Source: Archangiaceae bacterium
GTDB lineage: Bacteria > Myxococcota > Myxococcia > Myxococcales > Myxococcaceae
DNA: 11,494 bases
Assembly: GCA_043750125.1 (NCBI GenBank)
Contig: JAYVCD010000323.1
Span: forward strand, 1 to 11,494
Direction of reading: 5' to 3'
Shown here: in pieces, positions 121 through 11,494 of the stretch
Layout of the letters: the number at the start of each line of letters is the position of its first letter
Position numbering within the stretch: the stretch's first letter is position 1
Notes under the pieces: model-generated
Told to the model about the DNA's origin: nothing
The model's input: the letters and a program-made list of their open reading frames with translations, nothing else
Databases searched by the model: none
Made by a program: the position numbers and the translations under genes

Positions 121-2612
121 CAGATCCCCTCGAGGAAGTTCGCCATGTCGTCCTGGCCCGGGTAGCACGAGAGCTCGGCGGGGTCGGCGAGGAACCCGTG
201 GCTGCCGATGAACGTGCGGAACTGCGTCGCTTCGTCGATGCCGCTCGATTTGATCAGCCGGCGGGTCGCCGTATTGGGAACGACGGTGTCTCCGATTGCC
301 ATCTGCAGTCGCAGCCGCTTGGGCTTCGCCGTGACTTCGAGCCTGGTCTTCGGGTCGACGTACTTCAGCGGGCGGCTCAGCGCGTACGGCGAGAGGTTGA
401 TCGGGTCGATTTCGTCCAGGCACCACCGCGCCGCGTTGACGAACTGCTCGTACGCCGGCGTGCCTTCCGCAATCCCCTTGTCCATCAAGCCCTGCTTCAG
501 CGTCGGGCCAAAGGTCGCCGACTCGCGCATCAGGTCGACCATTCCCGCGCCGGCCACGTTGAGCAGCATCGAATTGAAGACGGGCTCGATGCCGGACACC
601 TCGGCGCCGACGATTCCTCCCAGGCTGATCCCGGCATAGGACACCTGGTTCGGATCGAGCCCGATGCCTCCGGTGATTGGCTTCCAGTCCATCTGCCGAA
701 TCAGGCGGACCTGGGCCGAGAGGTCGATGATCCCCTGACGAAAGTGGTCGCGGGTTCCAAAGAGGTTCGCCACATCGACATACGCGGCCCCGGTCGAGGT
801 GGGCGTGCCCGGGCTGCCGAGGTAGGCGGGGCCCCGCGCGGGCTCGGCGGGCAGGCCGCCTTTGACGCAGCTTCCGTTTTTGGCGCAGGTCGCACCCGAC
901 GAACATTGGTTGTCCTGCAGGCAGGCCGAGCGTTCGCCGTGAAACGGAAGATCGATGGCCATTACTGCGAAGCCGGCGCGCGAGAGGCGGTCGGCGACCA
1001 GGAAGGCGAGCCGGCGTTCGGTGGTCAGGGCGTGTCCAAAGACCAGCACCTTCACGTTGCTGCCCACGACCGCGGTCCTGGGCAGGGTGAGGAAGAACTC
1101 GATCGCTCGGGGTTCTCCCGCGCCGTTCTCGCGAAAAGCCCGCGTCGTCGGGTCGAGCCGGTCGAAGGTGGTGATTTTTCCGGTGATGTACTTGCCGACG
1201 TTGGGCTGCAAGATCGTGGCGGCCGACACCTTGGTGTCGATCACCGTTAAAGGCAGGTTCTTCTCATACGGGGTCATCCACAGCTCTCGCGCGCGGCCCA
1301 GAATGTCCTGGGTGGTGAAAACCCACGCGGCGCCGACGCTGTCTCGAGGGATCTTCGCGCCACTGAGGACGCCCGAAATTCCGGCGCGCAGCGGCTCGAG
1401 CTTGCTCGCGGTGGCGGTGCACATCGACGACAAGGTGGATTGCCCCTGCCCATCGAGCAGGCTCTGGCCCAGGGTGAGCACCGAAGGCAACGGCATCAGC
1501 GCCAAGGGGTTGCCCTGGGCGTCCTTCACGTTCGAGAGCACCACCACGTAGGCAGTCCCCGGCAGCAGCGGCACCCGGGGCTGCAGCACCAGCTTCTTCC
1601 CGTCGGCGCTCAGCGTTCGGTCCACCTCGGTGAATTCCACTTTGCTGTCCCGCGCGAACAGCCGGACGTGGGTCGGGGTCACCGAGCTGAGATCGATGGG
1701 CTGCGTGGCTTCGATCGACAGCGCCGCGGTGGTCGAGAAGCCGTCCAGCTGGTTGAAGCCCTTCTTCAGCTCGATCTGCTCGGGCTTGTCGGTCGCGGCG
1801 AAAGGCAGCGTCACCCTTCCGGTTGCGGGGTCGATCAGCAGCTGGTTGGGGAAGGGAATGCGCTTGCTGTTGGGGTCGAACAGCGCCTCGCCCTGGGTCA
1901 GGGCGGTGAAGTGCCAGAGCGCGATTACTTCCCGGCGGGGGACTCCTTTCGATTCGAGCATCGCGAAGTGGGGCTCGAGCCGGGCGCGAACCCCCTCGAG
2001 GCGCCGAGCGGTGGTGAGCTTTTCTGCGCGGGTGAGCCCCGGCAAGGCGTCGAGGTGGGTGGTCAGGTCTTTGCCCGCGCGCAGAAAATGAAAAGCGGGC
2101 GACTCGACCACTTCTTCCCCGTGCGAGCCCTTCAGCCCGTCTTTTCCTCCTCGCAGCGCAAAGACATACACGTGGCCGGGGACGAACCCGGTGGGCGCGC
2201 TGAAGCTCAGTGAAAGATCGCAGTCCGCCCAGGTGCGATCGAGCGCCACTTCGGCCAGCGGGCCTTTGCCGTGATCTCCCAGATCAAAGACCAGGGCGGT
2301 GGCGTTGGTGATGCTGTCCGGTGCCAGCGCGCCTGAGAACTGCACCCGGCCTGAGCTCGCCGTGGAGAACCCGTCGTGTCCGTTGAAGCCCGCCTTGAGC
2401 GCGTTCTCTGCGTCCGACAGCTCGGGGTTGGGGACAATCGCGACTTTGCCGTTGGCATCGAGCGCGAGGTCATTGGGGGTGGGCAGGTTGCCCTTCGCCG
2501 GATCGTAAACCACGTTGATCACCGGCGGCCGAATCACCGTGGGGATGTCCGGGCCACAGCCGACGAACAGCAACAGCGCAACGAACGGCGCCCGATCAGT
2601 CAGGGTTTTCAT
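120..2612 (-). CDS. Lipoprotein lipase/phospholipase, VolA/Pla-1/Cef-like alpha/beta hydrolase with two N-terminal Ig-like (Lipase_bact_N-type) domains, 830 aa
   Basis: Lipobox LLLFVG-C after a short hydrophobic stretch; P-x-PN and DGFST motifs (each twice); VLVFGHAL oxyanion region; AIDLPFHGER; nucleophile elbow GISLG (Ser codon 624-626); GDTVVPN (Asp); GSHGFL (His) near the C-terminus. Confidence 0.88.
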   Translation of the reverse strand: MKTLTDRAPFVALLLFVGCGPDIPTVIRPPVINVVYDPAKGNLPTPNDLALDANGKVAIVPNPELSDAENALKAGFNGHDGFSTASSGRVQFSGALAPDSITNATALVFDLGDHGKGPLAEVALDRTWADCDLSLSFSAPTGFVPGHVYVFALRGGKDGLKGSHGEEVVESPAFHFLRAGKDLTTHLDALPGLTRAEKLTTARRLEGVRARLEPHFAMLESKGVPRREVIALWHFTALTQGEALFDPNSKRIPFPNQLLIDPATGRVTLPFAATDKPEQIELKKGFNQLDGFSTTAALSIEATQPIDLSSVTPTHVRLFARDSKVEFTEVDRTLSADGKKLVLQPRVPLLPGTAYVVVLSNVKDAQGNPLALMPLPSVLTLGQSLLDGQGQSTLSSMCTATASKLEPLRAGISGVLSGAKIPRDSVGAAWVFTTQDILGRARELWMTPYEKNLPLTVIDTKVSAATILQPNVGKYITGKITTFDRLDPTTRAFRENGAGEPRAIEFFLTLPRTAVVGSNVKVLVFGHALTTERRLAFLVADRLSRAGFAVMAIDLPFHGERSACLQDNQCSSGATCAKNGSCVKGGLPAEPARGPAYLGSPGTPTSTGAAYVDVANLFGTRDHFRQGIIDLSAQVRLIRQMDWKPITGGIGLDPNQVSYAGISLGGIVGAEVSGIEPVFNSMLLNVAGAGMVDLMRESATFGPTLKQGLMDKGIAEGTPAYEQFVNAARWCLDEIDPINLSPYALSRPLKYVDPKTRLEVTAKPKRLRLQMAIGDTVVPNTATRRLIKSSGIDEATQFRTFIGSHGFLADPAELSCYPGQDDMANFLEGI

Positions 2613-2623
2613 GGAGACCCGTG

Positions 2624-2652
2624 GAGATAATCCTGCGCGCCGGGCGGGTCAA
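2624..2652 (-). promoter_or_regulatory. Candidate sigma70-type promoter for the lipase-fadL pair
   Basis: Minus strand reads TTGACC-N17-TATCTC, ending 11 nt before the ATG at 2612. There is no Shine-Dalgarno in between. The -10 box is imperfect. Confidence 0.5.
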
Positions 2653-2707
2653 ATCGGCGCGGAAGAAGTGGCTCACCGACTGCAGGTTCCTTCAGCCCGG
2701 AGCCGCC

Positions 2708-3017
2708 ATGCCGATGATCCTCATGTCACCCGCTTTCAAGTCTTTCGGGCCGATTCCCACCCGGTACACCTGCGAAGGGCCCAACGTCTCGCCTCCGTTG
2801 CAGTGGTCGGGGGTGCCCCTGTCCCCCCATCGGTCGCCACCGCTACTTCTTCAAGTTGTACGCGCTCGATTTCGAGCTTCCCCGAATGAAAAACGCCACC
2901 AAGAAGGACGTTGAAAAAGCGATGGAAGGCCGGGTGATCGCGCGCGCCGAGCTGGTGGGCACCTACGAGAAGACCGGCGGGCTGCACTACCGCCAAGAAT
3001 CGGGACGACGTTCCTGA
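2708..3017 (+). pseudogene. YbhB/YbcL family (PEBP/RKIP-like) gene with an internal deletion and +1 frameshift
   Basis: GGAG at 2699-2702 precedes the ATG at 2708. Bases 2708-2818 encode MPMILMSPAFKSFGPIPTRYTCEGPNVSPPLQWSGVP (family N-terminus). A different frame, 2817-3017, encodes PCPPIGRHRYFFKLYALDFELPRMKNATKKDVEKAMEGRVIARAELVGTYEK...* (family C-terminus). The central DPDAP and HW motifs are absent. Confidence 0.85.
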
Positions 3018-3232
3018 GCGAACGGACCGGGCCTGGGCGCGGTGTCCGCGGAGTCGCTCAACGGGCAACGGGTGCAAGAGAAGCTCTGCCAGCCGCGCAG
3101 AATCGACTCGTTGAGGCATTCATCGTAGTGGCTGCAATAGAGCCGACGGTGCCTCAAGATTTCTCTCTCGTTGCGCAGCGTCGAATCGAGGGGCGTGGGT
3201 TCCGGCTTCAACAACACCATGGGGTTCGTCAC
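2987..3232 (-). CDS. Small hypothetical protein with a C-x5-C-x13-C-x2-C motif, putative metal or Fe-S binding, about 81 aa
   Basis: (M)TNPMVLLKPEPTPL...HRRLYCSHYDECLNESILRGWQSFSCTRCPL...WR*. The GTG at 3232 has AAAGGA 5 nt upstream; an alternative ATG is at 3220. The longer 142-aa ORF-track version overlaps the divergent gene and is unlikely. From memory it resembles a short uncharacterised myxobacterial family (not searched). Confidence 0.75.
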   Translation of the reverse strand: MTNPMVLLKPEPTPLDSTLRNEREILRHRRLYCSHYDECLNESILRGWQSFSCTRCPLSDSADTAPRPGPFAQERRPDSWR

Positions 3233-3255
3233 TTCGTTCCTTTCGACGCGGCTAC

Positions 3256-3271
3256 TGCCCTCGCAATGCCA
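3256..3271 (-). promoter_or_regulatory. Candidate sigma54 (-24/-12) promoter for the small Cys protein gene
   Basis: Minus strand reads TGGCATTGCGAGGGCA: TGGCA at -24 with exact GG-N10-GC spacing. The -12 element is GGGCA rather than TTGCA. The predicted start site lies just upstream of the Shine-Dalgarno. Confidence 0.45.
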
Positions 3272-3288
3272 GTCCAGATTCGCGTCGG

Positions 3289-3310
3289 TCAATCGGTTTC
3301 CAACCGTTGA
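3289..3310. repeat. Imperfect inverted repeat in the divergent promoter region, possible regulator binding site
   Basis: TCAATCGGTT-TCC-AACCGTTGA: the arms are complementary over 9 bp with one extra base in the left arm; AT-rich relative to the flanks. Confidence 0.35.
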
Positions 3311-3353
3311 GCACAAGTGGATCTTCCCGAGGACACTGTTAGATCTCCCGGCG

Positions 3354-4763
3354 GTGAGGTTGAACCCGACGTACGAGCAGTTGGCCCAACTGCGAACGCT
3401 GGTCGCGCAGGCCAATGCTGGGCGTAGGGTCCGGATTCTCGAGCTCGAAGCCGTGCTCGAAGTCGCTCGCGAAGCGGTCGATTCGAAGCTCGGCTTCAGC
3501 TGGCGGCACGCGGGCGATCACGTGGACGCCCGGGCGAGCACGACGGTGTGCCTGGCGGTGCATGCCCGTGGCGGGGTCACCATCGGGTTGGCGGGGGTCC
3601 GCGCGCTCGATCCGGATCCCGGCAAGGGGTGGCCCGAATTGCGACCCTGGGTTTCGAGGGTCCCCGCTCAGAATGCGTCGCGGTGCGCCGCGTGGGGCGA
3701 GCGGCAAAGAGACGACCGGCTGGGTCTGAGCGTGCAATCCGAACAGCCCCGACGGGCCACCGCCGACGGGGCCGTTCTGCTCGAGGCGGTGCTCGCTCAC
3801 CCGGACGATGATGCGCCCCGGCTCGTCTATTCCGACTGGCTGGCCGACCAGGGCGACCCCCGCGGAGAGCTGATCGCCGTCCAGTGTGCCCGGGCCCGCC
3901 TTCCGGACGACGCGGTCGAACAGCGGGCGCTGGAGGAGCGCGAGTGGACGCTGTTGTCGCTGCATGAAGAGACGTGGCGCAAAGAGCTGGCTCCGGACGT
4001 GTTGAGCCTCAAGTTCCGGCGCGGCTTCGTCGACGAGCTGACGCTCTACGCCTCGACGTTCGTCGATCAGGCCGAGAAGATCTTCGCGCGTGAGCCGGTG
4101 ACGACCGCGCGCATCGTCGATGCGGCCGAGAAGGGCGCCGTTCAGCTCGCTGCCTGTCCGTCGCTTCGTAAGCTTTCGGGCTTGAGATTGTCGAACTCGA
4201 CCGGCGCCTATGAGCGGGGGATCGGGCTCGAAGGGCTGGGCGCGCTGCTGTCGTCCCGCCACGTCGGCGCCCTGGGCTGCCTGGTTCTGGAAGGACAACA
4301 CGTCGATGATCTGGGTGCGATCGTCCTGGCCAAGGCGGGCCCGGGGGCGCTTCCGGCGCTGCACACCTTGCAGCTGAGCGCTGATTCGGTCACTGCGGTG
4401 GGAGTCGAAAATCTGTGCGAGACCAAGTGGTTCCGGCGGCTGCGGCGCGTCTCGTTCGCCGCCAACGCCCTGCGCGAAGTCGGAATCGAGGCGCTGGCCT
4501 TCGCCCCCGGAGCCGGCGCCTGGGAAGAGCTCGACCTCGATGCCAACCTGGTCGGCGACGCGGGCGCCCGGGTGATCGCCGCCCATGAGCGGCTCGGGTC
4601 GTTGAAGCGCTTGTCTCTTCAGCGAGATCACCTCGGGCCGGCCGGAGTGCAGGCGCTGCTCGATTCGCCCCGGCTCAAGGGACTGCAGGCCCTTCGCCTC
4701 GATGGAAATCGAATCGGCGGGCTGTTGGTGGAAAAGGTGAGGCAGCGCTTCGGGGCGTGGTGA
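3354..4763 (+). CDS. TIGR02996 (repeat-companion) domain protein with C-terminal leucine-rich repeats and an unrecognised N-terminal region, about 469 aa; start uncertain (GTG 3354 or TTG 3360)
   Basis: LLEAVLAHPDDDAPRLVYSDWLADQGDPRGELIAVQC at 3777-3887 is the TIGR02996 signature, followed by FRRGFV and about seven ribonuclease-inhibitor-like LRRs (e.g. WEELDLDANLVGDAGARVIA, LQALRLDGNRIG). The ORF-track start at 3171 overlaps the divergent small gene. Confidence 0.85.
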   Translation: MRLNPTYEQLAQLRTLVAQANAGRRVRILELEAVLEVAREAVDSKLGFSWRHAGDHVDARASTTVCLAVHARGGVTIGLAGVRALDPDPGKGWPELRPWVSRVPAQNASRCAAWGERQRDDRLGLSVQSEQPRRATADGAVLLEAVLAHPDDDAPRLVYSDWLADQGDPRGELIAVQCARARLPDDAVEQRALEEREWTLLSLHEETWRKELAPDVLSLKFRRGFVDELTLYASTFVDQAEKIFAREPVTTARIVDAAEKGAVQLAACPSLRKLSGLRLSNSTGAYERGIGLEGLGALLSSRHVGALGCLVLEGQHVDDLGAIVLAKAGPGALPALHTLQLSADSVTAVGVENLCETKWFRRLRRVSFAANALREVGIEALAFAPGAGAWEELDLDANLVGDAGARVIAAHERLGSLKRLSLQRDHLGPAGVQALLDSPRLKGLQALRLDGNRIGGLLVEKVRQRFGAW

Positions 4764-4784
4764 AGGCTCTGCTAGAGGCGGTTC

Positions 4785-5744
4785 ATGAACCAGCGCCGCA
4801 GCTATTACCCGCCGATCGAGCCGTACCGCACCGGGCGCCTGCCGGTCTCGGGTGGGCACGAGCTGTACTTCGAAGAGAGCGGCAACCCGAAGGGAAAGCC
4901 GGTCGTCTTCCTTCACGGCGGCCCCGGCGGAGGCAGTGAGCCGAAGCAGCGCCGCTTCTTTGATCCCACCGCCTACCGCATCGTTCTGTTCGACCAGCGC
5001 GGCTGCGGCAAGTCGACCCCCTTCGCTTCGATCGAGAACAACACCACCTGGGACCTGGTCGCCGACATCGAGGCGCTGCGGCTGCACTTGAAGATCGACC
5101 GGTGGCAGCTCTTCGGGGGCTCGTGGGGCAGCACCCTGTCGCTGGCCTACGCCCAGACCCACCCCGCCAGCGTCACCGAGCTGGTGCTGCGCGGAATCTT
5201 TCTGTTGCGAAAGCAGGAGATCGACTGGTTCTACCAACGGGGTTGCAGTGCAATCTGGCCAGACGCCTGGGAACCGTACTTCAACCACATTCCGCAAGCC
5301 GAGCGCGGCGATCTGATGCGCGCGTACCACCGCCGGCTCACCAGCGATGATCGCGAAGTTCGGCTCGCCGCCGCGCGCGCGTGGAGCGTGTGGGAAGGCA
5401 GCACCAGCTACCTGCATTCGAACGCCGAGATGATTCAGCGCACCGGGGAAGACGAGTTCGCGCTCGCCTTCGCGCGGATCGAGTGCCACTACTTCTTGAA
5501 CGACGGCTGGCTCACCCAGGGCCGCGCACTGCTCGACAACATCGAGCAGATTCGCCACCTGCCCTGCGTGATCGTGCAAGGCCGCTACGACGTGGTGTGC
5601 CCGATGGAATCGGCGTGGGCGCTTCATCGCGCCTGGCCGTCGGCGGAATTGAACGTCGTCGCCGACGCGGGACATTCGGCACACGAGCCTGGAAACGTTC
5701 ACGCGCTGGTGCTTGCAACCGACGGATTCAAGAGCAGGAAATGA
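4785..5744 (+). CDS. pip: Proline iminopeptidase (prolyl aminopeptidase, peptidase S33), 319 aa
   Basis: YPPIEPY N-terminus, HGGPGGG, FDQRGCGKS, GGSWG nucleophile (Ser codon 5121-5123), LRGIF, ARIECHYF, QGRYDVVCP (Asp), AGHS (His). GAGG Shine-Dalgarno; 21 nt downstream of the previous stop. Confidence 0.97.
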   Translation: MNQRRSYYPPIEPYRTGRLPVSGGHELYFEESGNPKGKPVVFLHGGPGGGSEPKQRRFFDPTAYRIVLFDQRGCGKSTPFASIENNTTWDLVADIEALRLHLKIDRWQLFGGSWGSTLSLAYAQTHPASVTELVLRGIFLLRKQEIDWFYQRGCSAIWPDAWEPYFNHIPQAERGDLMRAYHRRLTSDDREVRLAAARAWSVWEGSTSYLHSNAEMIQRTGEDEFALAFARIECHYFLNDGWLTQGRALLDNIEQIRHLPCVIVQGRYDVVCPMESAWALHRAWPSAELNVVADAGHSAHEPGNVHALVLATDGFKSRK

Positions 5745-5775
5745 GCTTTCGAGAGATCCGGTCGAAGACGCGTCC

Positions 5776-5805
5776 TTGACGGACCCCGTGCGTTCCATCT
5801 ATCGA
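5776..5805 (+). promoter_or_regulatory. Candidate sigma70-type promoter giving a leaderless or near-leaderless topA mRNA
   Basis: TTGACG (5776-5781), 18 nt, TATCGA (5800-5805), then 8 nt to the ATG at 5814. No Shine-Dalgarno. The -10 box is weak. Confidence 0.35.
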
Positions 5806-5813
5806 CCGCGCCA

Positions 5814-8651
5814 ATGGCCAAGTCGCTCGTGATCGTCGAATCGCCCGCTAAGGCGAAAACCATCGGCCAGTTCCTGGGATCCGACTTCACCGTGATGGCC
5901 AGCATCGGCCACGTGGTGGACCTTCCTTCCTCTGGTTTGTGTGTCGATACCGAGAACAACTTCGAGCTCACCTACGAGGTGACGAAGAAGGACGTCGTCC
6001 GCGATCTGAAGGAAGCGTTGAAGAAGGCCAGCGCCCTGTACCTCGCGACCGACGAAGACAGAGAAGGGGAAGCGATCGCCTTTCACCTCAACGAGCAGCT
6101 GAAGCCCAAAGTGCCCGTGAAGCGGATGGTGTTTCACGAAATCACCAAGGCGGCGATCAAGCATGCGCTCGAGGTGAGCCGCGACATCGACCGCAGCCTC
6201 GTCGACGCCCAGGAAACCCGCCGCACTCTCGACCGGCTCTTTGGCTACGAGGTCTCGCCGGTGCTGTGGCGCAAGGTGAAGGGCGGGCTGTCTGCCGGCC
6301 GCGTTCAGTCGCCCAGCATTCGCTTGATTGTCGAGCGCGAGCGCGAGCGAATGGCGTTTCGTTCGATCGCCTATTGGGACCTCGGCGCCAGGCACCCCAC
6401 CCCCCCGGCCTTCACTTCGTCCTTGCTCGAGATCGACGGGAAGCGGGTCGCCGCCGGCAAAGACTTCGATCAGCTCGGGAAGGCCACCCGCGACGTGGTC
6501 CTGCTCGACGAGGCCCTGGCCCGACAGCTGGCCGAGCGGCTGGTGGGGCTTCCGTTCGTCGTGCGCAGCGTCGAAGAGCGCCCCTCGCGCTCATCGCCCA
6601 AGCCGCCGTTCATGACGTCCACCCTGCAGCAGGAAGCCGGCCGCAAGCTCAACATGAGCGCCCAGCAGGTGATGCGCATCGCCCAGGGTCTGTATGAGAA
6701 GGGCTTCATCACCTACATGCGCACCGACTCGACCAACTTGTCCGAGACCGCCGTCACCGCGGCCCGCGCCCAGGTTCAGGCCCTGTTCGGCGCAGAGTTC
6801 CTGCCCGCCGAGCCGCGCACCTACCTCAAGAAACAGAAGAACGCTCAGGAAGCACACGAGGCCATTCGCCCTGCCGCGGAAGCCGACGACGCCGGCGTCG
6901 TGAATTTCCGTTCTACCGAAGAGCTGAAGGCCGAGCTCAACGGCGCCGAGCTCAAGCTTTATGACTTGATCTGGAAGCGGACTCTCGCTTGCCAGATGAA
7001 CGACGCGATCGGCGTCTCGGTTTCCGCCCGCATGGGCGTCAAGACCGCGAAGGAAGACGTCGTCTTCTCCGCGTCCGGGCGGACCCTGACTTTCCCCGGC
7101 TACCTGCGCGCGTACGTCGAAGGCAGCGATGACCCCGACTCGGAGCTCGAAGACCGCGAGACCGCGCTGCCGGTCCTCAAAGAAGGCGAGGCCGTTCCGA
7201 CCGAAGGCATCGAGGCCCGCGGTCACACCACCACCGCCCCCGCCCGCTACACCGAAGCGTCCCTGGTCAAGAAGCTCGAAGAGCTCGGCATCGGCCGTCC
7301 TTCTACCTACGCGTCGATCATGGGCACTCTCCAGGCCAAGTACGTCTGGAAGAAAGGCCAGGCCCTCATCCCCGCCTGGGTCGCCTTCGCCGTCGTCAAC
7401 GTGATGGAACAGCACTTCGGCGGACTCGTCGATTACAAGTTCACCGCTCGCATGGAAGACGATCTCGATGAGATCGCCGCCGGCGAGCAGGACAAAGTCC
7501 CCTACCTCAAAGAATTCTACTGGGGAAAACCGAAGATCGGCCTGGTCGGGCTGCACCAGCAGGTCACCGAAAACATCGCCGACATCGACGCCGCCGCCGT
7601 CAATTCGATTCCGATCGGGAAGGACCCTTCAGGCGTCGACATCATCGTCAAGCCCGGTCGCTACGGCCCGTATTTGAAGCGCGGCGAAGACACCGTGTCC
7701 GTTCCTGAGAATCTCGCTCCCGATGAAATGACCGTCGCCCGCGCGATGGAGCTGCTGTCTGCTCCCCGCGGCGATGTTCCCATCGGCGTCGACCCCGTCA
7801 GCGGGAAGAACGTCTACGCCAAGAACGGTCGCTTCGGCGCCTACGTCCAGCTGGGCGAGATGCCCGAAGTGAAGGGCAAAGGGAAGATCGCCCAGGAAGA
7901 CAAACCCAAGACCGCTTCGCTCTTCAAAGACATGAAGCTCGACGGGCTCAAGCTCGAAGACGCTCTCAAGCTCCTCGAGCTGCCCCGCTCGCTCGGCGTC
8001 GTCGATGAGAAGGAAGTCGTCGCCGCCAACGGTCGCTATGGCCCGTATCTGAAGTGGGACACCGAAACCCGCAACATGGGCGTCGACAACGAGGCCCGGC
8101 TCTTCACCATCAGCCTCGATGAGGCCATGGTCATTCTTCGCGAGCCCAAGCAGTTCAAGGGCCGCGGTCAGGCCAAGCCCCCCCTTGCCTCGTACCCTCC
8201 CGACCCCGTCTCTGGAAAACCCGTCGTCCTCAAGGAAGGCCGCTTCGGGTTCTATGTCACCGACGGCGAGACCAACGCGTCCCTGCGCCGCGGAGACGAG
8301 GTCGCCGATCTCACCGCCGAACGCGCCTATGAGCTGATGGAGCTCCGCCGCGAATACATCGCTTCCGGCGGCGGGAAGAAACCCAAGAAGGTCAAGAAGA
8401 CTTCCGCCAAGCCCAAGGCCGTCAAGGCCGCTTCTCGCACCGCCGATAAGGCGCCCGCCAAAGTCATCAAGCCACCGGGCAAAGTCGGCGCCAAGCCGCC
8501 CGGCAAAGTCGCCACCCCGCCCGGCAAAGTCGCCACCCCCTCTAAAATCACCAAGCTCAGCGCCGCCAATTCCCCAGATAAGACTTCCAAGAAGGGCGCT
8601 CCGAAGAAGGCCGCCAAATCCAAGAAGTCCGGGTCCGTCGCCAGCCGGTAA
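5814..8651 (+). CDS. topA: DNA topoisomerase I (type IA) with four Topo_C_Rpt-type C-terminal repeats and a Lys/Ala/Pro-rich tail, 945 aa
   Basis: LVIVESPAKAKTI, ATDEDREGEAI (TOPRIM), SAGRVQS, ITYMRTDS (catalytic Tyr codon 6714-6716), AQEAHEAIRP, GIGRPSTYA, FTARMEDDLDEIA. GR[YF]G-x-Y repeats begin at 7656, 7827, 8031 and 8238. No CxxC zinc-ribbon motifs. Confidence 0.98.
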   Translation: MAKSLVIVESPAKAKTIGQFLGSDFTVMASIGHVVDLPSSGLCVDTENNFELTYEVTKKDVVRDLKEALKKASALYLATDEDREGEAIAFHLNEQLKPKVPVKRMVFHEITKAAIKHALEVSRDIDRSLVDAQETRRTLDRLFGYEVSPVLWRKVKGGLSAGRVQSPSIRLIVERERERMAFRSIAYWDLGARHPTPPAFTSSLLEIDGKRVAAGKDFDQLGKATRDVVLLDEALARQLAERLVGLPFVVRSVEERPSRSSPKPPFMTSTLQQEAGRKLNMSAQQVMRIAQGLYEKGFITYMRTDSTNLSETAVTAARAQVQALFGAEFLPAEPRTYLKKQKNAQEAHEAIRPAAEADDAGVVNFRSTEELKAELNGAELKLYDLIWKRTLACQMNDAIGVSVSARMGVKTAKEDVVFSASGRTLTFPGYLRAYVEGSDDPDSELEDRETALPVLKEGEAVPTEGIEARGHTTTAPARYTEASLVKKLEELGIGRPSTYASIMGTLQAKYVWKKGQALIPAWVAFAVVNVMEQHFGGLVDYKFTARMEDDLDEIAAGEQDKVPYLKEFYWGKPKIGLVGLHQQVTENIADIDAAAVNSIPIGKDPSGVDIIVKPGRYGPYLKRGEDTVSVPENLAPDEMTVARAMELLSAPRGDVPIGVDPVSGKNVYAKNGRFGAYVQLGEMPEVKGKGKIAQEDKPKTASLFKDMKLDGLKLEDALKLLELPRSLGVVDEKEVVAANGRYGPYLKWDTETRNMGVDNEARLFTISLDEAMVILREPKQFKGRGQAKPPLASYPPDPVSGKPVVLKEGRFGFYVTDGETNASLRRGDEVADLTAERAYELMELRREYIASGGGKKPKKVKKTSAKPKAVKAASRTADKAPAKVIKPPGKVGAKPPGKVATPPGKVATPSKITKLSAANSPDKTSKKGAPKKAAKSKKSGSVASR
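8451..8539 (+). repeat. Coding tandem repeat in the topA tail (21-24-nt units, PPGKVAT-like)
   Basis: CCGCCCGGCAAAGTCGCCACC occurs as two exact copies at 8496-8516 and 8517-8537, preceded by diverged units encoding APAKVIK and PPGKVGAK. Confidence 0.9.
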
Positions 8652-8844
8652 CGGGAGCGCTCCTCACCGGTCGGAAACCAGGGACCTTGCTCCCGCCCTT
8701 CGCCCAGGGCTCTTCCACCATCGATTGAAGGACCACCCCGGCATGCCCTCACCCCGGGTTCTCGCCGCTGATCCATTTGGGCATTGGCGGAATCAGATTT
8801 TCTGGGGCTCTGCGCACCCTCCCGCGTTTTTTTCCCGACCTTGT

Positions 8845-8876
8845 CCCTCCAACCACACCCTGATGTGGTCGGAAGG
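8845..8876 (-). terminator. Stem-loop 13 nt downstream of the oxidoreductase stop; possible non-canonical terminator or 3'-end stabilising hairpin
   Basis: Minus-strand RNA CCUUCCGACCACAU-CAGG-GUGUGGUUGGAGGG forms a 14-bp stem with three G-U pairs, which only pair on the minus strand. No U-tract follows. Confidence 0.5.
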
Positions 8877-8889
8877 CCAAGCCCAGGCT

Positions 8890-11494
8890 TCAGACCCGAA
8901 TCAGCCCCGGCGTCTTCTTGATCAGGTGATCCAGCCACAGGTTTGATTGCTTCTCGAGCACCGTGTTCGCCCTCAGCCGCGAGTTCAGGTGCACGAAGTC
9001 CACCTCGTCCAGATGTTGATCCTGGTTCGAGCACGAGAAGACGAACGATTCTTTTCCTGTTTTTGGATCCACATGGCGCTGAAGACACTGCGCGCAGATC
9101 TCTTTCATCATGCACTGCATCGGAGAGTTGATGCTTCCCACCGCCGTGTGCGCCGGCTTCAGGTACGGCTGCAGCACTCCGTGTCGGGCGTCTTTCACCG
9201 CCTTCATCATTCGATCGCTGCCAATCACAATCAGCCGATCGACCGTGCGCAACGGGACGATTTGTCTTCCCAGCTCACCCTTCGCGTACGCCACCATCGC
9301 CTGCACCACGTTGCCGTGGAAGGAACGGTCTTGCTCGCGCCTCGGCTTGATCAGCTCGCCCGAGTCCACCGACCAGATCACCTGATCCGTGCCTTTCTCT
9401 ACGTCGTCCATCTTGAAGCTGTCTTCCCTCGTCCGGTAACCGGCGAAGTAGATCACCGCGCAGCCCGCTGCCTCGAGCGCCTGGCCAATCGAAAACAACA
9501 CTGCGTTTCCCAGCCCTCCTCCCACCAACAACACCGTCTCGTTGTTCGGAATGTCCGTCGGCGTTCCCGTCGGCCCCATCAACACCACCGGTTCACCCGG
9601 CTTCAGCGCTGCGCACAGCCGCGAGCTGCCCCCCATCTCGAGCACGATCGTGCTCATCAACCCCTTCTCTTTGTCGACCCAGGCCCCCGTCAGCGCCAGG
9701 CCTTCCATCGACAACGTCGTCTCTTCGACCCGCGGGACTCGCCGTTCGAAGTTCTGCAGCCGATAGAACTGGCCCGGTTGAAAGTGTTTCGCCGCGAACG
9801 GCGCCCGCACCACCACCTCGACAATCGTCGGAGTCAGCCGATTCACCGCCACCACCGTCGCAAGGAACGCGTCGTCCAGCCGCTTGAACAGCTCGGCACT
9901 CGAACGGGTCGCGTCTGAAGCCGCCGCAATCTCTTTTGCAAACAGCTTGGCCACCTGCGGGTACCCGTCTTTCGCCGACGCCATCGCCTTCACCACGTTG
10001 CCCGCATAGGTTGGGTGGTTGTCCCCGTAGAAGCTGATGAACCGGTGGTCTTTGGCGTACGAGGTGAAGAAGCCCGTGTCCTTCCCGATGTCCTCATGCG
10101 GGTGGACCTCGTGCAGCTGCCAGCCGTCGGGCCCGTCCGTCAGATCGTACCCGCGGAAAAAGCTGCGCTCGTTGTCGAGCAGGAACGTGTTCGGGTACTC
10201 GTGCTCGTAGGTCACGTTGGGCTTGGTGCCCGCCGCGACGCAGACCGTCTTCGCCGGAAGCTCGTAATAGGTGCCCGTGCCCTTGAGCTTTCCGTCGATC
10301 GTCGACATCCGCTCGAACTTCATCGCCTTCAGCGCCCCGAATTCGTCCGGCACCGCTTCGATCGGCGCCACCCGTTCGATGATCCGGATTCCCTCTTCCA
10401 GCGCCTCAGCGACTTCTTCGTGGTTGAGCCGATATGCCGGCGATTCGATCAGCGACCGGCGGTAACAGAGGCTGACGCCTCCCCAGGCACGCACCAGAGG
10501 AATGAAGTTCGGCTTCTCGTCCACCTTCGCCGCCCGCGCGCGCTCGGCTCGAATCGCGCGGCCGTGCTCGAGGAACGTCAGGTAGGTCTGCTTCTCTTCC
10601 CCGTCCAGCTTCGCCAACACCTTCTCTTCGCCGATGTCCGCCACCAACTTCTCGTGCCGCCCCAGCACTTTTTCCACCTGCACCGGGTAATAGGCGAACA
10701 GCTCGGTCGCGGTGTCGATGCCCGTCAGGCCTCCGCCAATCACCAGCGCCGGAAGCTGCACCTGCAGGTTGGCCAGTGAGTCTTTCTTCGCCGCCCCGGT
10801 GAGCTGCAGCGCCATCAGGAAGTCGCTCGCCGCCCGCATTCCGCGCAGCAGGTTGTTCTTGATGTTGAGCAGCGTCGGACTTCCCGCGCCCGCCGCGATC
10901 GCGATGTGATCAAAGCCCAGCGCCCACGCGTCCTCGATGGTCAGCGTGCCGCCGAAGCGAATGCCGCCGTACATGTTCAAGTGCTCGCGCCGAGCCAGCG
11001 TCAGGTGGATCAACGTGAGGAACGTCTTGTCCCACCGCACCGTGATTCCGTACTCAGAGACGCCGCCGAAGCCGGCGAGCACCCGCTGATCCAGCGAGAC
11101 CGCCAGCTGCTTGAAGTCCTTCAAGGGCTGCAGCCGGGCACCGTTCTTTCCGGTCAAGGCGTCTTCGAACGGCTCGACCTTCAACCCGTCGATGCCCGCG
11201 ACCGCGAACCCTTCGTTCAGCAGGTAGTGGCTCAGCGTGTAGCCGGCAGGCCCCAGCCCCACCACCATCACGTTCTTCCCGTTGTACGGAAGCGCGTACG
11301 GGCGGGCGAGGTTGAGCGGGTTCCAGCGCGTCAACAGGCCGTAGATTTCAAAGCCATAGGACAACGCCAGCACATCGGTCAGCGCGCTGGTTTCAATCTG
11401 CGGAATGTTCACCGGGTCCTGCTTCTGGAAGATGCAGGCCTTCATGCAGTCGTTGCAGATTCGATGGCCGGTGCCGGGGCACATCGGGTTGTCG
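8890..11494 (-). CDS. Large FAD-dependent Fe-S oxidoreductase: GltD/NfnB/SudA-like module fused to an FNR/PyrK/NfnA-like module with a C-terminal [2Fe-2S]-type motif; 5' end lies beyond the window
   Basis: The frame is open to the edge (DNPMCPGTGHRICNDCMKAC, a GltD-like Fe-S region). Rossmann motifs VVGLGPAG and VIGGGLTGID; GGVSEYGI; then FQPGQFYRL, MGPTG, LVGGGLG and SPMQCMMKEICAQC...FSC. Confidence 0.88.
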   Translation of the reverse strand, partial: DNPMCPGTGHRICNDCMKACIFQKQDPVNIPQIETSALTDVLALSYGFEIYGLLTRWNPLNLARPYALPYNGKNVMVVGLGPAGYTLSHYLLNEGFAVAGIDGLKVEPFEDALTGKNGARLQPLKDFKQLAVSLDQRVLAGFGGVSEYGITVRWDKTFLTLIHLTLARREHLNMYGGIRFGGTLTIEDAWALGFDHIAIAAGAGSPTLLNIKNNLLRGMRAASDFLMALQLTGAAKKDSLANLQVQLPALVIGGGLTGIDTATELFAYYPVQVEKVLGRHEKLVADIGEEKVLAKLDGEEKQTYLTFLEHGRAIRAERARAAKVDEKPNFIPLVRAWGGVSLCYRRSLIESPAYRLNHEEVAEALEEGIRIIERVAPIEAVPDEFGALKAMKFERMSTIDGKLKGTGTYYELPAKTVCVAAGTKPNVTYEHEYPNTFLLDNERSFFRGYDLTDGPDGWQLHEVHPHEDIGKDTGFFTSYAKDHRFISFYGDNHPTYAGNVVKAMASAKDGYPQVAKLFAKEIAAASDATRSSAELFKRLDDAFLATVVAVNRLTPTIVEVVVRAPFAAKHFQPGQFYRLQNFERRVPRVEETTLSMEGLALTGAWVDKEKGLMSTIVLEMGGSSRLCAALKPGEPVVLMGPTGTPTDIPNNETVLLVGGGLGNAVLFSIGQALEAAGCAVIYFAGYRTREDSFKMDDVEKGTDQVIWSVDSGELIKPRREQDRSFHGNVVQAMVAYAKGELGRQIVPLRTVDRLIVIGSDRMMKAVKDARHGVLQPYLKPAHTAVGSINSPMQCMMKEICAQCLQRHVDPKTGKESFVFSCSNQDQHLDEVDFVHLNSRLRANTVLEKQSNLWLDHLIKKTPGLIRV

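Follow-up and report, generated by a model that had tools for sequence, protein, structure and literature searches.

A strand-polar purine-pyrimidine island centred on a lineage-specific convergent junction between topA and an oxidoreductase gene in an Archangiaceae genome

The subject of this report is a local, strand-specific bias in base composition in a stretch of 11,494 nt from an Archangiaceae bacterium. This stretch, hereafter the window, is the entire contig C323 (JAYVCD010000323.1) of the metagenome-assembled genome G000 (GCA_043750125.1; 460 contigs, 6.17 Mb, 64.9% G+C, 89% complete). The bias forms an island of about 4.3 kb (6620-10945), with a pyrimidine-rich + strand and a purine-rich - strand, which covers the 3' two-thirds of topA, the adjoining spacer and the 3' three-quarters of a convergent oxidoreductase gene. 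The island arose in place, in this lineage, after the split from the nearest sampled congener, and it is centred on a gene junction that exists in this genome only. Very probably, it was produced by a strand-polar bias of the fixation type, which acts on transversions and leaves transitions untouched; as to the underlying cause, our preference for a link with transcription is tentative.

The gene topA (5814-8651, + strand) encodes a DNA topoisomerase I of 945 amino acids, with Pfam matches to Toprim (8.1e-19), Topoisom_bac (3.8e-110) and four Toprim_C_rpt repeats (2.8e-59), and the oxidoreductase gene (8890-11484, - strand; 864 amino acids as called) matches Pyr_redox_2 (1.5e-08). In bins of 100 codons, the four-fold-site skew of the + strand lies between -0.16 and -0.27 in the first part of topA (5814-6713) and, from an onset about one third into the gene, between -0.47 and -0.71 (6714-8651). 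It stays at -0.55 to -0.71 in the 3' part of the oxidoreductase gene (8890-9984), falls to -0.11 in 9985-10284, returns to -0.45 and -0.49 in 10285-10884, and is -0.10 and -0.21 beyond. A two-breakpoint likelihood fit (log-likelihood gain 65) places the edges of the island at 6620 (support 6182-6704) and 10945 (support 9994-11047), with a four-fold pyrimidine fraction of 0.774 on the + strand inside these bounds and 0.523 outside. The profile is tent-like. Its peak lies in the last 630 nt of topA (8018-8600), where three consecutive bins of 40 sites reach pyrimidine fractions of 0.85-0.88, and a dip patch at 9964-10231 has a fraction of 0.62, compared to 0.75-0.80 on either side. From about codon 200 onward, as far as its stop, the oxidoreductase gene has a purine-rich sense strand, and its coding purine-pyrimidine (RY) skew, in bins of 145 codons from 5' to 3', is +0.07, +0.41, +0.32, +0.46, +0.52 and +0.65.

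The bias had been proposed in an earlier reading of the bare sequence (the original prediction) from approximate hand counts, as an excess of C over G between about 7000 and 10900, and exact counts bear it out. The valine codons of topA number 16 GTG and 13 GTC in 5814-6999 and 3 GTG and 41 GTC in 7000-8648, exactly as given; in 8890-9990 of the oxidoreductase gene there are 27 GTG and 8 GTC (estimated at about 29 and 8), the segment 9481-9540 holds 27 C and 7 G (about 26 and 7), and the spacer is indeed rich in C and T (C 91, G 60, T 51, A 36). A patch near 10020-10250 had also been described, which is the dip of the profile at 9985-10284, as had fading by about 11000. The left boundary had been offered as approximate, at about 7000; the fit places it at 6620.

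Genome-wide values were taken from frames found with a crude purpose-made caller (3448 frames, 70% of the assembly). The skew of the island lies outside the resulting distribution and includes the most extreme windows of the 6.2-Mb assembly. Among 5050 windows of 300 four-fold sites (standard deviation 0.133; 99th percentile of the absolute skew 0.37), the top three all lie in the island (-0.62, -0.585 and -0.575), and among 2185 windows of 600 sites the segment 6730-10230 ranks first at -0.58, with the runner-up at -0.45. Among 2777 genes, no half-gene values are more extreme in either direction than those of topA and of the oxidoreductase gene, which have opposite signs and come from adjoining genes.

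On both sides of the island the skew is close to zero. In the left flank (125-4288) it is +0.02 to +0.05, within 0.06 of zero. The right end of the window overlaps the end of contig C151 by 91 nt, in an order (C151, then C323) supported by synteny with the congener G004, and 11 of the 12 bins of C151 lie within 0.10 of zero, with one at -0.30. At the level of whole contigs, the four-fold skew of G000 is unimodal, with a standard deviation of 0.083 (209 contigs). The junction between the two genes is no assembly artefact, because unitigs bridge it without mismatch (8510-9115 in runs X1 and X2, 8510-8979 in X3 and X4; all four runs come from one study, probably the assembly's own source). The bias is tied to the strand and not to the gene, is local, and is centred near the convergent junction, as had been claimed; the sense direction of the two genes cannot explain it, since the same strand is hit in opposite genes. 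The general inference of a local strand-asymmetric process near the junction stands, and three of the specific processes that had been suggested for it fall, as discussed below.

The contrast within the island is one of purines versus pyrimidines, because the AT skew equals the GC skew in size and sign: at the four-fold sites of 7787-9076, the RY skew is -0.68, the GC skew -0.68 and the AT skew -0.67. All eight four-fold codon families are shifted, to C or T endings in topA and to G or A endings in the oxidoreductase gene, even where this runs against the usual codon preference of G000. Two-fold sites, at which only transitions occur, are unshifted. The C:T ratio of codons ending in a pyrimidine (NNY) and the G:A ratio of codons ending in a purine (NNR) are 0.79 and 0.69 in the 3' part of topA and 0.79 and 0.66 in that of the oxidoreductase gene, at the genome-wide values of 0.79 and 0.71. 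The bias extends beyond synonymous sites. At codon positions 1 and 2, the island has 11 changes from purine to pyrimidine and 2 in reverse (p 0.02), as against 1 and 2 outside it, and residues of the essential enzyme encoded by topA are altered by the bias. In the spacer, 142 of the 238 bases of the + strand are pyrimidines (60%, p 0.003), or 112 of 184 (p 0.004) when a palindrome described below is excluded. Codon preference, which the original prediction had already discarded, therefore cannot account for the island, as all eight families shift oppositely in the two genes and as the same bias is seen at replacement sites and in the spacer. Because synonymous, replacement and intergenic sites are all affected, the force acts on the composition of DNA or RNA and not on codons.

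No shared motif accompanies the bias: k-mers of 5-8 nt in the island reveal nothing beyond a - strand that is rich in G overall, and purine or pyrimidine runs there do not exceed 12 nt. The - strand has 107 runs of at least three G and the + strand 39 (R-loop-prone regions have such clusters on the non-template strand, 3' of a promoter), and the island holds no four-run G-quadruplex motif. Mutational context gives no signature, with ancestral G changed at a fraction of 0.36-0.66 for each neighbouring base with more than five sites. Avoidance of RNA structure finds no support either, as the folding energy is hardly altered (-0.340 kcal/mol per nt, versus -0.359 in the sister genome G003). A sigma-70 promoter scan returned 0 sites, the sigma-54 pattern 2 matches versus 4.3 expected, and a search for terminator-like sites 6 versus 5.2 expected, none of them located in the spacer. 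Across the whole window there are zero Rfam matches to structured RNA at E up to 1.

The history of the island can be read from related genomes, namely the sister G003 (available in fragments), G002, the congener G004, G005 from another genus, and G008, G009 and G012. The nearest named loci to the window come from Myxococcaceae and Archangiaceae metagenome bins, and in search of closer relatives, one scan each of genome contigs and of metagenome contigs yielded no match above 74% and 71% identity, respectively. The topA orthologues, 91% identical in G003 and 85% in G002 and G004, have skews of -0.2 to +0.35 in these three genomes and five other genera, and in the orientation of the window the relatives' topA locus has +0.1 to +0.3, that is, the opposite sign. 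For the oxidoreductase orthologues, of which the fragments from G003 and G002 are 94% identical, the skew is close to zero or negative in G003, G002, G004, G012, G009 and G008.

The original prediction had named different phylogenetic origins of the two parts of topA as a possible explanation of the codon shift, and a recombined patch among the candidate causes. Both parts share one origin. Residues 1-270 and 271-890 each give the tree (G000,G003),(G002,G004), with support of 85/85 and 88/89 and similar branch lengths, and the identity of the protein to that of G003 is 0.86-0.97 per bin of 100 residues up to residue 900, with 0.44 in the tail of 45 residues. Divergence at two-fold sites is uniform as well. 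Differences between G000 and G003 amount to 24 of 92 outside the island and to 22 of 118 and 23 of 93 inside it (p 0.37), or to 19-26% along topA and 15-22% along the oxidoreductase gene, and at these sites G000 is no farther from the outgroups than G003 is. A patch of other origin is rejected in view of the common tree, the even identity and the uniform transition divergence, and no donor lineage is needed.

What distinguishes G000 at this locus is the junction itself. In G000 the two genes converge across 238 bp, and among the ten genomes examined no relative has the oxidoreductase gene next to topA; in G012, G008 and G005 the two are convergent and 6-10 kb apart. In seven relatives' loci, topA is followed by a gene for an NrtR-like Nudix regulator (243 amino acids), and six of these seven, together with G005, carry a gene for a methyltransferase-domain protein of 460-519 amino acids. 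Neither gene was found in the G000 assembly, save one 40%-identical paralogue on contig C28. The lipase-like gene and the gene for a 177-amino-acid protein which G012 has in the same interval are also missing from the G000 assembly. Compared by blastn with 13 relatives' loci, the spacer (8652-8889) and its surroundings match in the gene ends only, and the spacer is thus dissimilar to the genes found after topA elsewhere. Directly after the oxidoreductase stop, the spacer contains a palindrome of about 45 bp (8836-8881, - strand) resembling a repetitive extragenic palindrome (REP), with ten more copies on other contigs. The segment 8826-8890 folds with -37.9 kcal/mol (z -6.95) as - strand RNA and with -20.2 kcal/mol as + strand RNA. 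The palindrome was considered as the cause of the island and rejected, given that the flanks of the 10 other copies are unskewed (absolute RY skew at most 0.2).

The substitution kinetics were derived at sites where two outgroups agree, with G003 compared at the same sites. On the + strand, ancestral G has become C or T at 118 of 185 sites in G000 and at 58 of 181 in G003, whereas the reverse change, from ancestral C to G or A, is found at 8 of 144 sites in G000 and 38 of 143 in G003. Transitions do not differ in this way: C to T stands at 10 of 144 and 11 of 143, and G to A at 4 of 185 and 12 of 181, in G000 and G003, respectively. With a two-state correction, the rate ratios of G000 to G003 are 2.25 forward and 0.24 reverse, and a single coefficient S = 2.25 predicts ratios of 2.52 and 0.26. 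Had just the forward rate gone up, reverse changes should be present at 30 of the 144 sites, and they are present at 8 (p 3e-7). Among the forward changes, G to C outnumbers G to T by 96 to 22. These kinetics are characteristic of fixation-type biases, and equally of asymmetries in which the input of one strand is raised and that of the other lowered. A site of damage to single-stranded DNA or of R-loop formation, as had been suggested, is disfavoured, as C to T is not raised on either strand; the lack of raised transitions likewise argues against single-strand exposure, deamination and general error-prone synthesis. A simple mutational origin is also spoken against by the spontaneous mutations of Myxococcus xanthus, among which GC:CG changes are rarer than expected (PMC11069108).

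Other islands in G000 and in one relative help to place this one. A second junction-crossing island lies on contig C135 (about 5680-7980; RY skew +0.5 to +0.6), over the 3' ends of a G000-only PG_binding gene, without homologue in the seven syntenic loci searched, and of a facing MiaB-like gene; the relatives lack this island. By synteny with G004 it is about 40 kb from the window, and its polarity is opposite. On the same contig, a segment of 1.6 kb (11077-12643) is inverted relative to contig C51 of G004, and the 57-kb neighbourhood contains several gaps and rearrangements between the two genomes. Weaker islands, with absolute RY skews of 0.4-0.75, occur on C424 (6.2-9.4 kb), C232 (1.3-4.1 kb), C399 (19.8-22 kb) and C420 (16-33 kb); that on C424 is specific to G000, that on C232 ends at a gene end, and several lie within 1.5 kb of contig ends. 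In G005, from another genus, the oxidoreductase orthologue (contig C32 of that genome, 17.4-20.5 kb) has a sense strand that is purine-rich over its full length (+0.31 to +0.56) and a convergent junction of 4 bp, while eight other orthologues are not purine-rich. A general rule for convergent junctions was tried and rejected, as a raw correlation of r 0.34 falls to about 0.1 once contig means and C323 are removed.

For the cause of this fixation-type bias, a link with transcription appears plausible, if somewhat less than probable, by analogy among three loci. In the window, on C135 and in G005, the bias rises along a purine-rich gene, which may be called the driver, peaks near or past its stop and fades in the antisense of the neighbour; in the window it climbs along the oxidoreductase gene from 5' to 3', is highest shortly after the stop of that gene and then dies away within 2 kb of topA, in antisense. 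It is because the three loci share this shape that we prefer a transcription-linked cause with the oxidoreductase gene as the driver. The polarity would then be set by transcription that now crosses the junction, most likely in the sense of the oxidoreductase gene, past the REP hairpin and on into topA in antisense until it fades. Strand-directed correction of mispairs, or weak selection on transcripts, would enrich the non-template strand in purines and the template in pyrimidines. In its most specific form, read-through over the new junction would recruit a repair that resynthesises the template strand, sees purine-purine mispairs and is blind to pyrimidine-pyrimidine ones, giving a local 'transversion drive' with S of about 2; this version, in all its parts, is improbable. 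Any one molecular mechanism is, indeed, unlikely to be the right one when taken singly, and we rank a transcription-linked bias in repair or fixation before selection on transcript composition, and the latter before strand-polar gene conversion.

Several points weigh against the transcription-linked cause. Among the runs listed as containing the stretch, none is recorded as RNA, and how strongly and in which direction the junction is transcribed, and whether there is read-through, is conjectural. Read from topA or from the oxidoreductase gene, the profile is equally symmetric, and the casting of the latter as the driver would follow solely from analogy with G005 and C135. Its first 145-200 codons are little affected (+0.07 to +0.21), though as a driver they would be equally transcribed. 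On C424 and C420, the islands lie in tandem genes whose sense strand is rich in pyrimidines, and they would need long antisense drivers. Biased oxidoreductase genes occur in two of the five genomes with a convergent neighbour, versus none of the five with a tandem one (ten related genomes, a sample that is too small and lacks independence). The adjusted correlation between gene ends, of about 0.1, is equal at convergent, divergent and tandem junctions, and because the type of junction makes no difference after adjustment, there is no general read-through effect in G000. The fit of a fixation bias, moreover, cannot separate selection, biased repair and a two-way mutational asymmetry, and the rates were obtained by parsimony at near-saturated sites from one fragmented sister genome and one metagenome-assembled genome.

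The alternative that survives best, though unlikely, is weak selection on the base composition of transcripts crossing the new junction. In one version, a pyrimidine-rich, G-poor RNA of + sense would allow Rho to end topA read-through before it collides with oxidoreductase transcription; in another, the oxidoreductase mRNA would be loaded with purines. The kinetics suit both, as they fit a selection-like bias with S of about 2.25, and the spacer lacks a consensus intrinsic terminator. Rho prefers C-rich, G-poor RNA, and a Rho-utilisation region has C over G in untranslated RNA past the stop, free of ribosomes over roughly 100 nt. In keeping with this, the + sense RNA past the topA stop has an all-site GC skew of -0.16 to -0.32 over 9001-9900. 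The bias, however, is 4.3 kb long and extends for about 2 kb within translated topA, where ribosomes would cover the RNA, and it turns the - sense RNA G-rich, so that oxidoreductase read-through into topA would become less open to Rho. For either version it is awkward that the bias overrides codon preference and alters residues in an essential enzyme, that the predicted folding energy is nearly the same as in G003 and that no motif is enriched.

Strand-polar biased gene conversion is a further candidate, and a rather doubtful one. Recombination at the new deletion would reuse one donor strand time and again, with pyrimidine-pyrimidine mispairs escaping repair and purine-purine mispairs being corrected; C-C mispairs do escape MutS-type repair. 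Such a process would explain why only transversions are affected, G/C and A/T to the same degree, while transitions keep their rate; why forward changes are accelerated and reverse changes slowed; and why the tent is centred on the indel with the same polarity on both sides. It would have to act over many events, since a single one is excluded by the 64% of ancestral purine sites that have changed, and no feature was found that would fix the donor strand throughout. Replication direction cannot set that strand, as the C135 island, about 40 kb off, has the opposite polarity, and long-patch repair is expected to remove the whole mismatched donor strand. A single heteroduplex event was considered separately and rejected: it would need a transversion divergence of 64%, beyond the saturation divergence of any two donors.

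Transcription-coupled lesion asymmetry, in which damage to the non-template strand stays unrepaired while the template is cleaned, would yield strand-specific transversions; we regard it as improbable. It predicts a rise on one strand together with a fall on the other, and both are seen, in a bias which is local and of the scale of genes. Cytosine deamination, the commonest strand-specific lesion, nevertheless predicts an excess of C to T, and there is none on either strand. G to C exceeds G to T (96 versus 22), and GC:CG changes are, as mentioned, rarer than expected among the M. xanthus mutations (PMC11069108). There is no signature of sequence context, and a tenfold asymmetry is large for this mechanism.

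Two further readings are remote. One is an imported patch or two independent, gene-specific shifts of codon usage in neighbouring genes; the region is structurally rearranged relative to its relatives, and gene-confined islands such as that on C232 exist elsewhere, but against it stand the single tree for both topA parts, the uniform transition divergence, the shared bias of spacer and replacement sites, and the abutment of the two most extreme opposite-sign half-genes among 2777 genes. Least credible of all is a replication feature, in which the skew would be switched or boosted by an origin, a terminus or a site of fork stalling. In its favour, the topA locus of G008 is found some 0.17 Mb away from the point opposite dnaA, and two junction-crossing islands of opposite polarity lie about 40 kb apart. 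Against it, there is no sign change (the left flank and 11 of 12 C151 bins are near zero), G is paired with A and not with T, the contig skew is weak genome-wide, the locus of G012 is mid-replichore at 2.1 Mb from dnaA, and the relatives' syntenic locus is without the bias and of opposite sign; the replication skew switch of the original prediction is thus rejected.

The remainder of the window and the ends of the oxidoreductase gene deserve a brief description. Its real frames were separated from shadow frames by the G+C content of third codon positions (GC3) and by a higher content at first than at second positions (GC1 > GC2). On the left, called frames encode a Big_5 protein (120-2612, - strand), an unnamed product (3171-4763, + strand) and an alpha/beta hydrolase (4785-5744, + strand); a - strand frame of 819 codons at 3339-5798 is a shadow frame of the latter two, real genes, with A/T-rich third positions. 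The oxidoreductase frame stays open for about 480 codons 5' of the called start, on the adjoining contig C151 (the upstream part runs from 11484-11494 onward), and the relatives' frames are likewise open upstream (1237-1471 amino acids). Judged from these frames, the called protein may be too short; the extension at its N-terminal side has no Pfam match. Over 11293-11494, contigs from each of the four runs reach 30-60 times the depth seen elsewhere in the gene. The Cys-rich N-terminus of the oxidoreductase is common to many organisms, which is probably the reason why the contig stops there. Highly expressed genes could not serve as a codon reference, since the rplB and rpoB domains (Ribosomal_L2_N and RNA polymerase Rpb2_6) were not found in the 89% complete G000 assembly, where the cluster of ribosomal-protein genes and rpoBC seems to be unbinned.

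The island shares traits with several known asymmetries and matches none of them. Like replication-associated GC skew, it is a strand-based excess at synonymous sites that is independent of gene orientation. Replication skew, however, extends over whole replichores, switches sign at the origin and at the terminus and has G paired with T, whereas the island is 4.3 kb long, has zero skew on both sides and pairs G with A; it is also far stronger than the contig skew of the genome (about -0.6, as against a standard deviation of 0.083) and absent from relatives. Transcription-associated asymmetry is likewise local, gene-scale and polar, and could follow a transcript through one gene and antisense into the next, but its known bacterial form is driven by C to T and marks a gene's own sense strand, while the island leaves transitions as they were and affects one and the same strand in two genes of opposite sense. 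The contrast of purines and pyrimidines recalls Szybalski's rule and the purine asymmetry of Firmicutes, and the oxidoreductase sense strand is purine-rich accordingly (+0.3 to +0.65). Sense-strand purine loading and the Firmicutes asymmetry are reported to be genome-wide and linked to orientation (PMC4070872, PMC5291525); the effect described here is local and recent, and topA runs counter to the rule, with a four-fold skew of -0.47 to -0.71 along its sense strand. As in GC-biased gene conversion and codon selection, forward changes are sped and reverse changes slowed, as one coefficient predicts (S about 2.25). Those processes are strand-symmetric and concern GC versus AT or particular codons, in contrast to a strand-polar, purine-versus-pyrimidine effect over 4.3 kb. 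Kataegis-like mutation clusters in single-stranded DNA, finally, are also strand-coordinated over a few kb beside a rearrangement breakpoint. They stem from one event and strike all codon positions, whereas the island leaves the identity to the sister's protein unchanged, has neither context signature nor transition excess, and has more changed sites than one event could give. A full-text literature search returned no earlier description of a local RY island at synonymous sites in bacteria, at the level of abstracts and with supplements outside its reach.

Strand asymmetries are used for finding origins, for inferring mutational processes and in models of synonymous sites, which assume replication and deamination-type transcription as their sources. 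The island fits neither source, being restricted to transversions, a contrast of purines and pyrimidines, fixation-like, a few kb long, and having arisen within one genus beside a fresh rearrangement. If selection is its cause, the base composition of a read-through transcript would be visible to selection over thousands of sites. If a transversion drive is at work, it would act like biased gene conversion, overwriting codon usage and some residues of an essential gene, and its traces would make antisense transcription legible in any genome. If, more broadly, a bias in repair or conversion tied to transcription is responsible, it would be an unlisted evolutionary force that locally distorts codon usage, the ratio of nonsynonymous to synonymous substitution rates (dN/dS) and even protein sequence, and it could allow antisense transcription of long standing to be recognised from sequence alone. 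Either way, the window offers a testable case, with a defined junction, a defined polarity and an unaffected sister genome.

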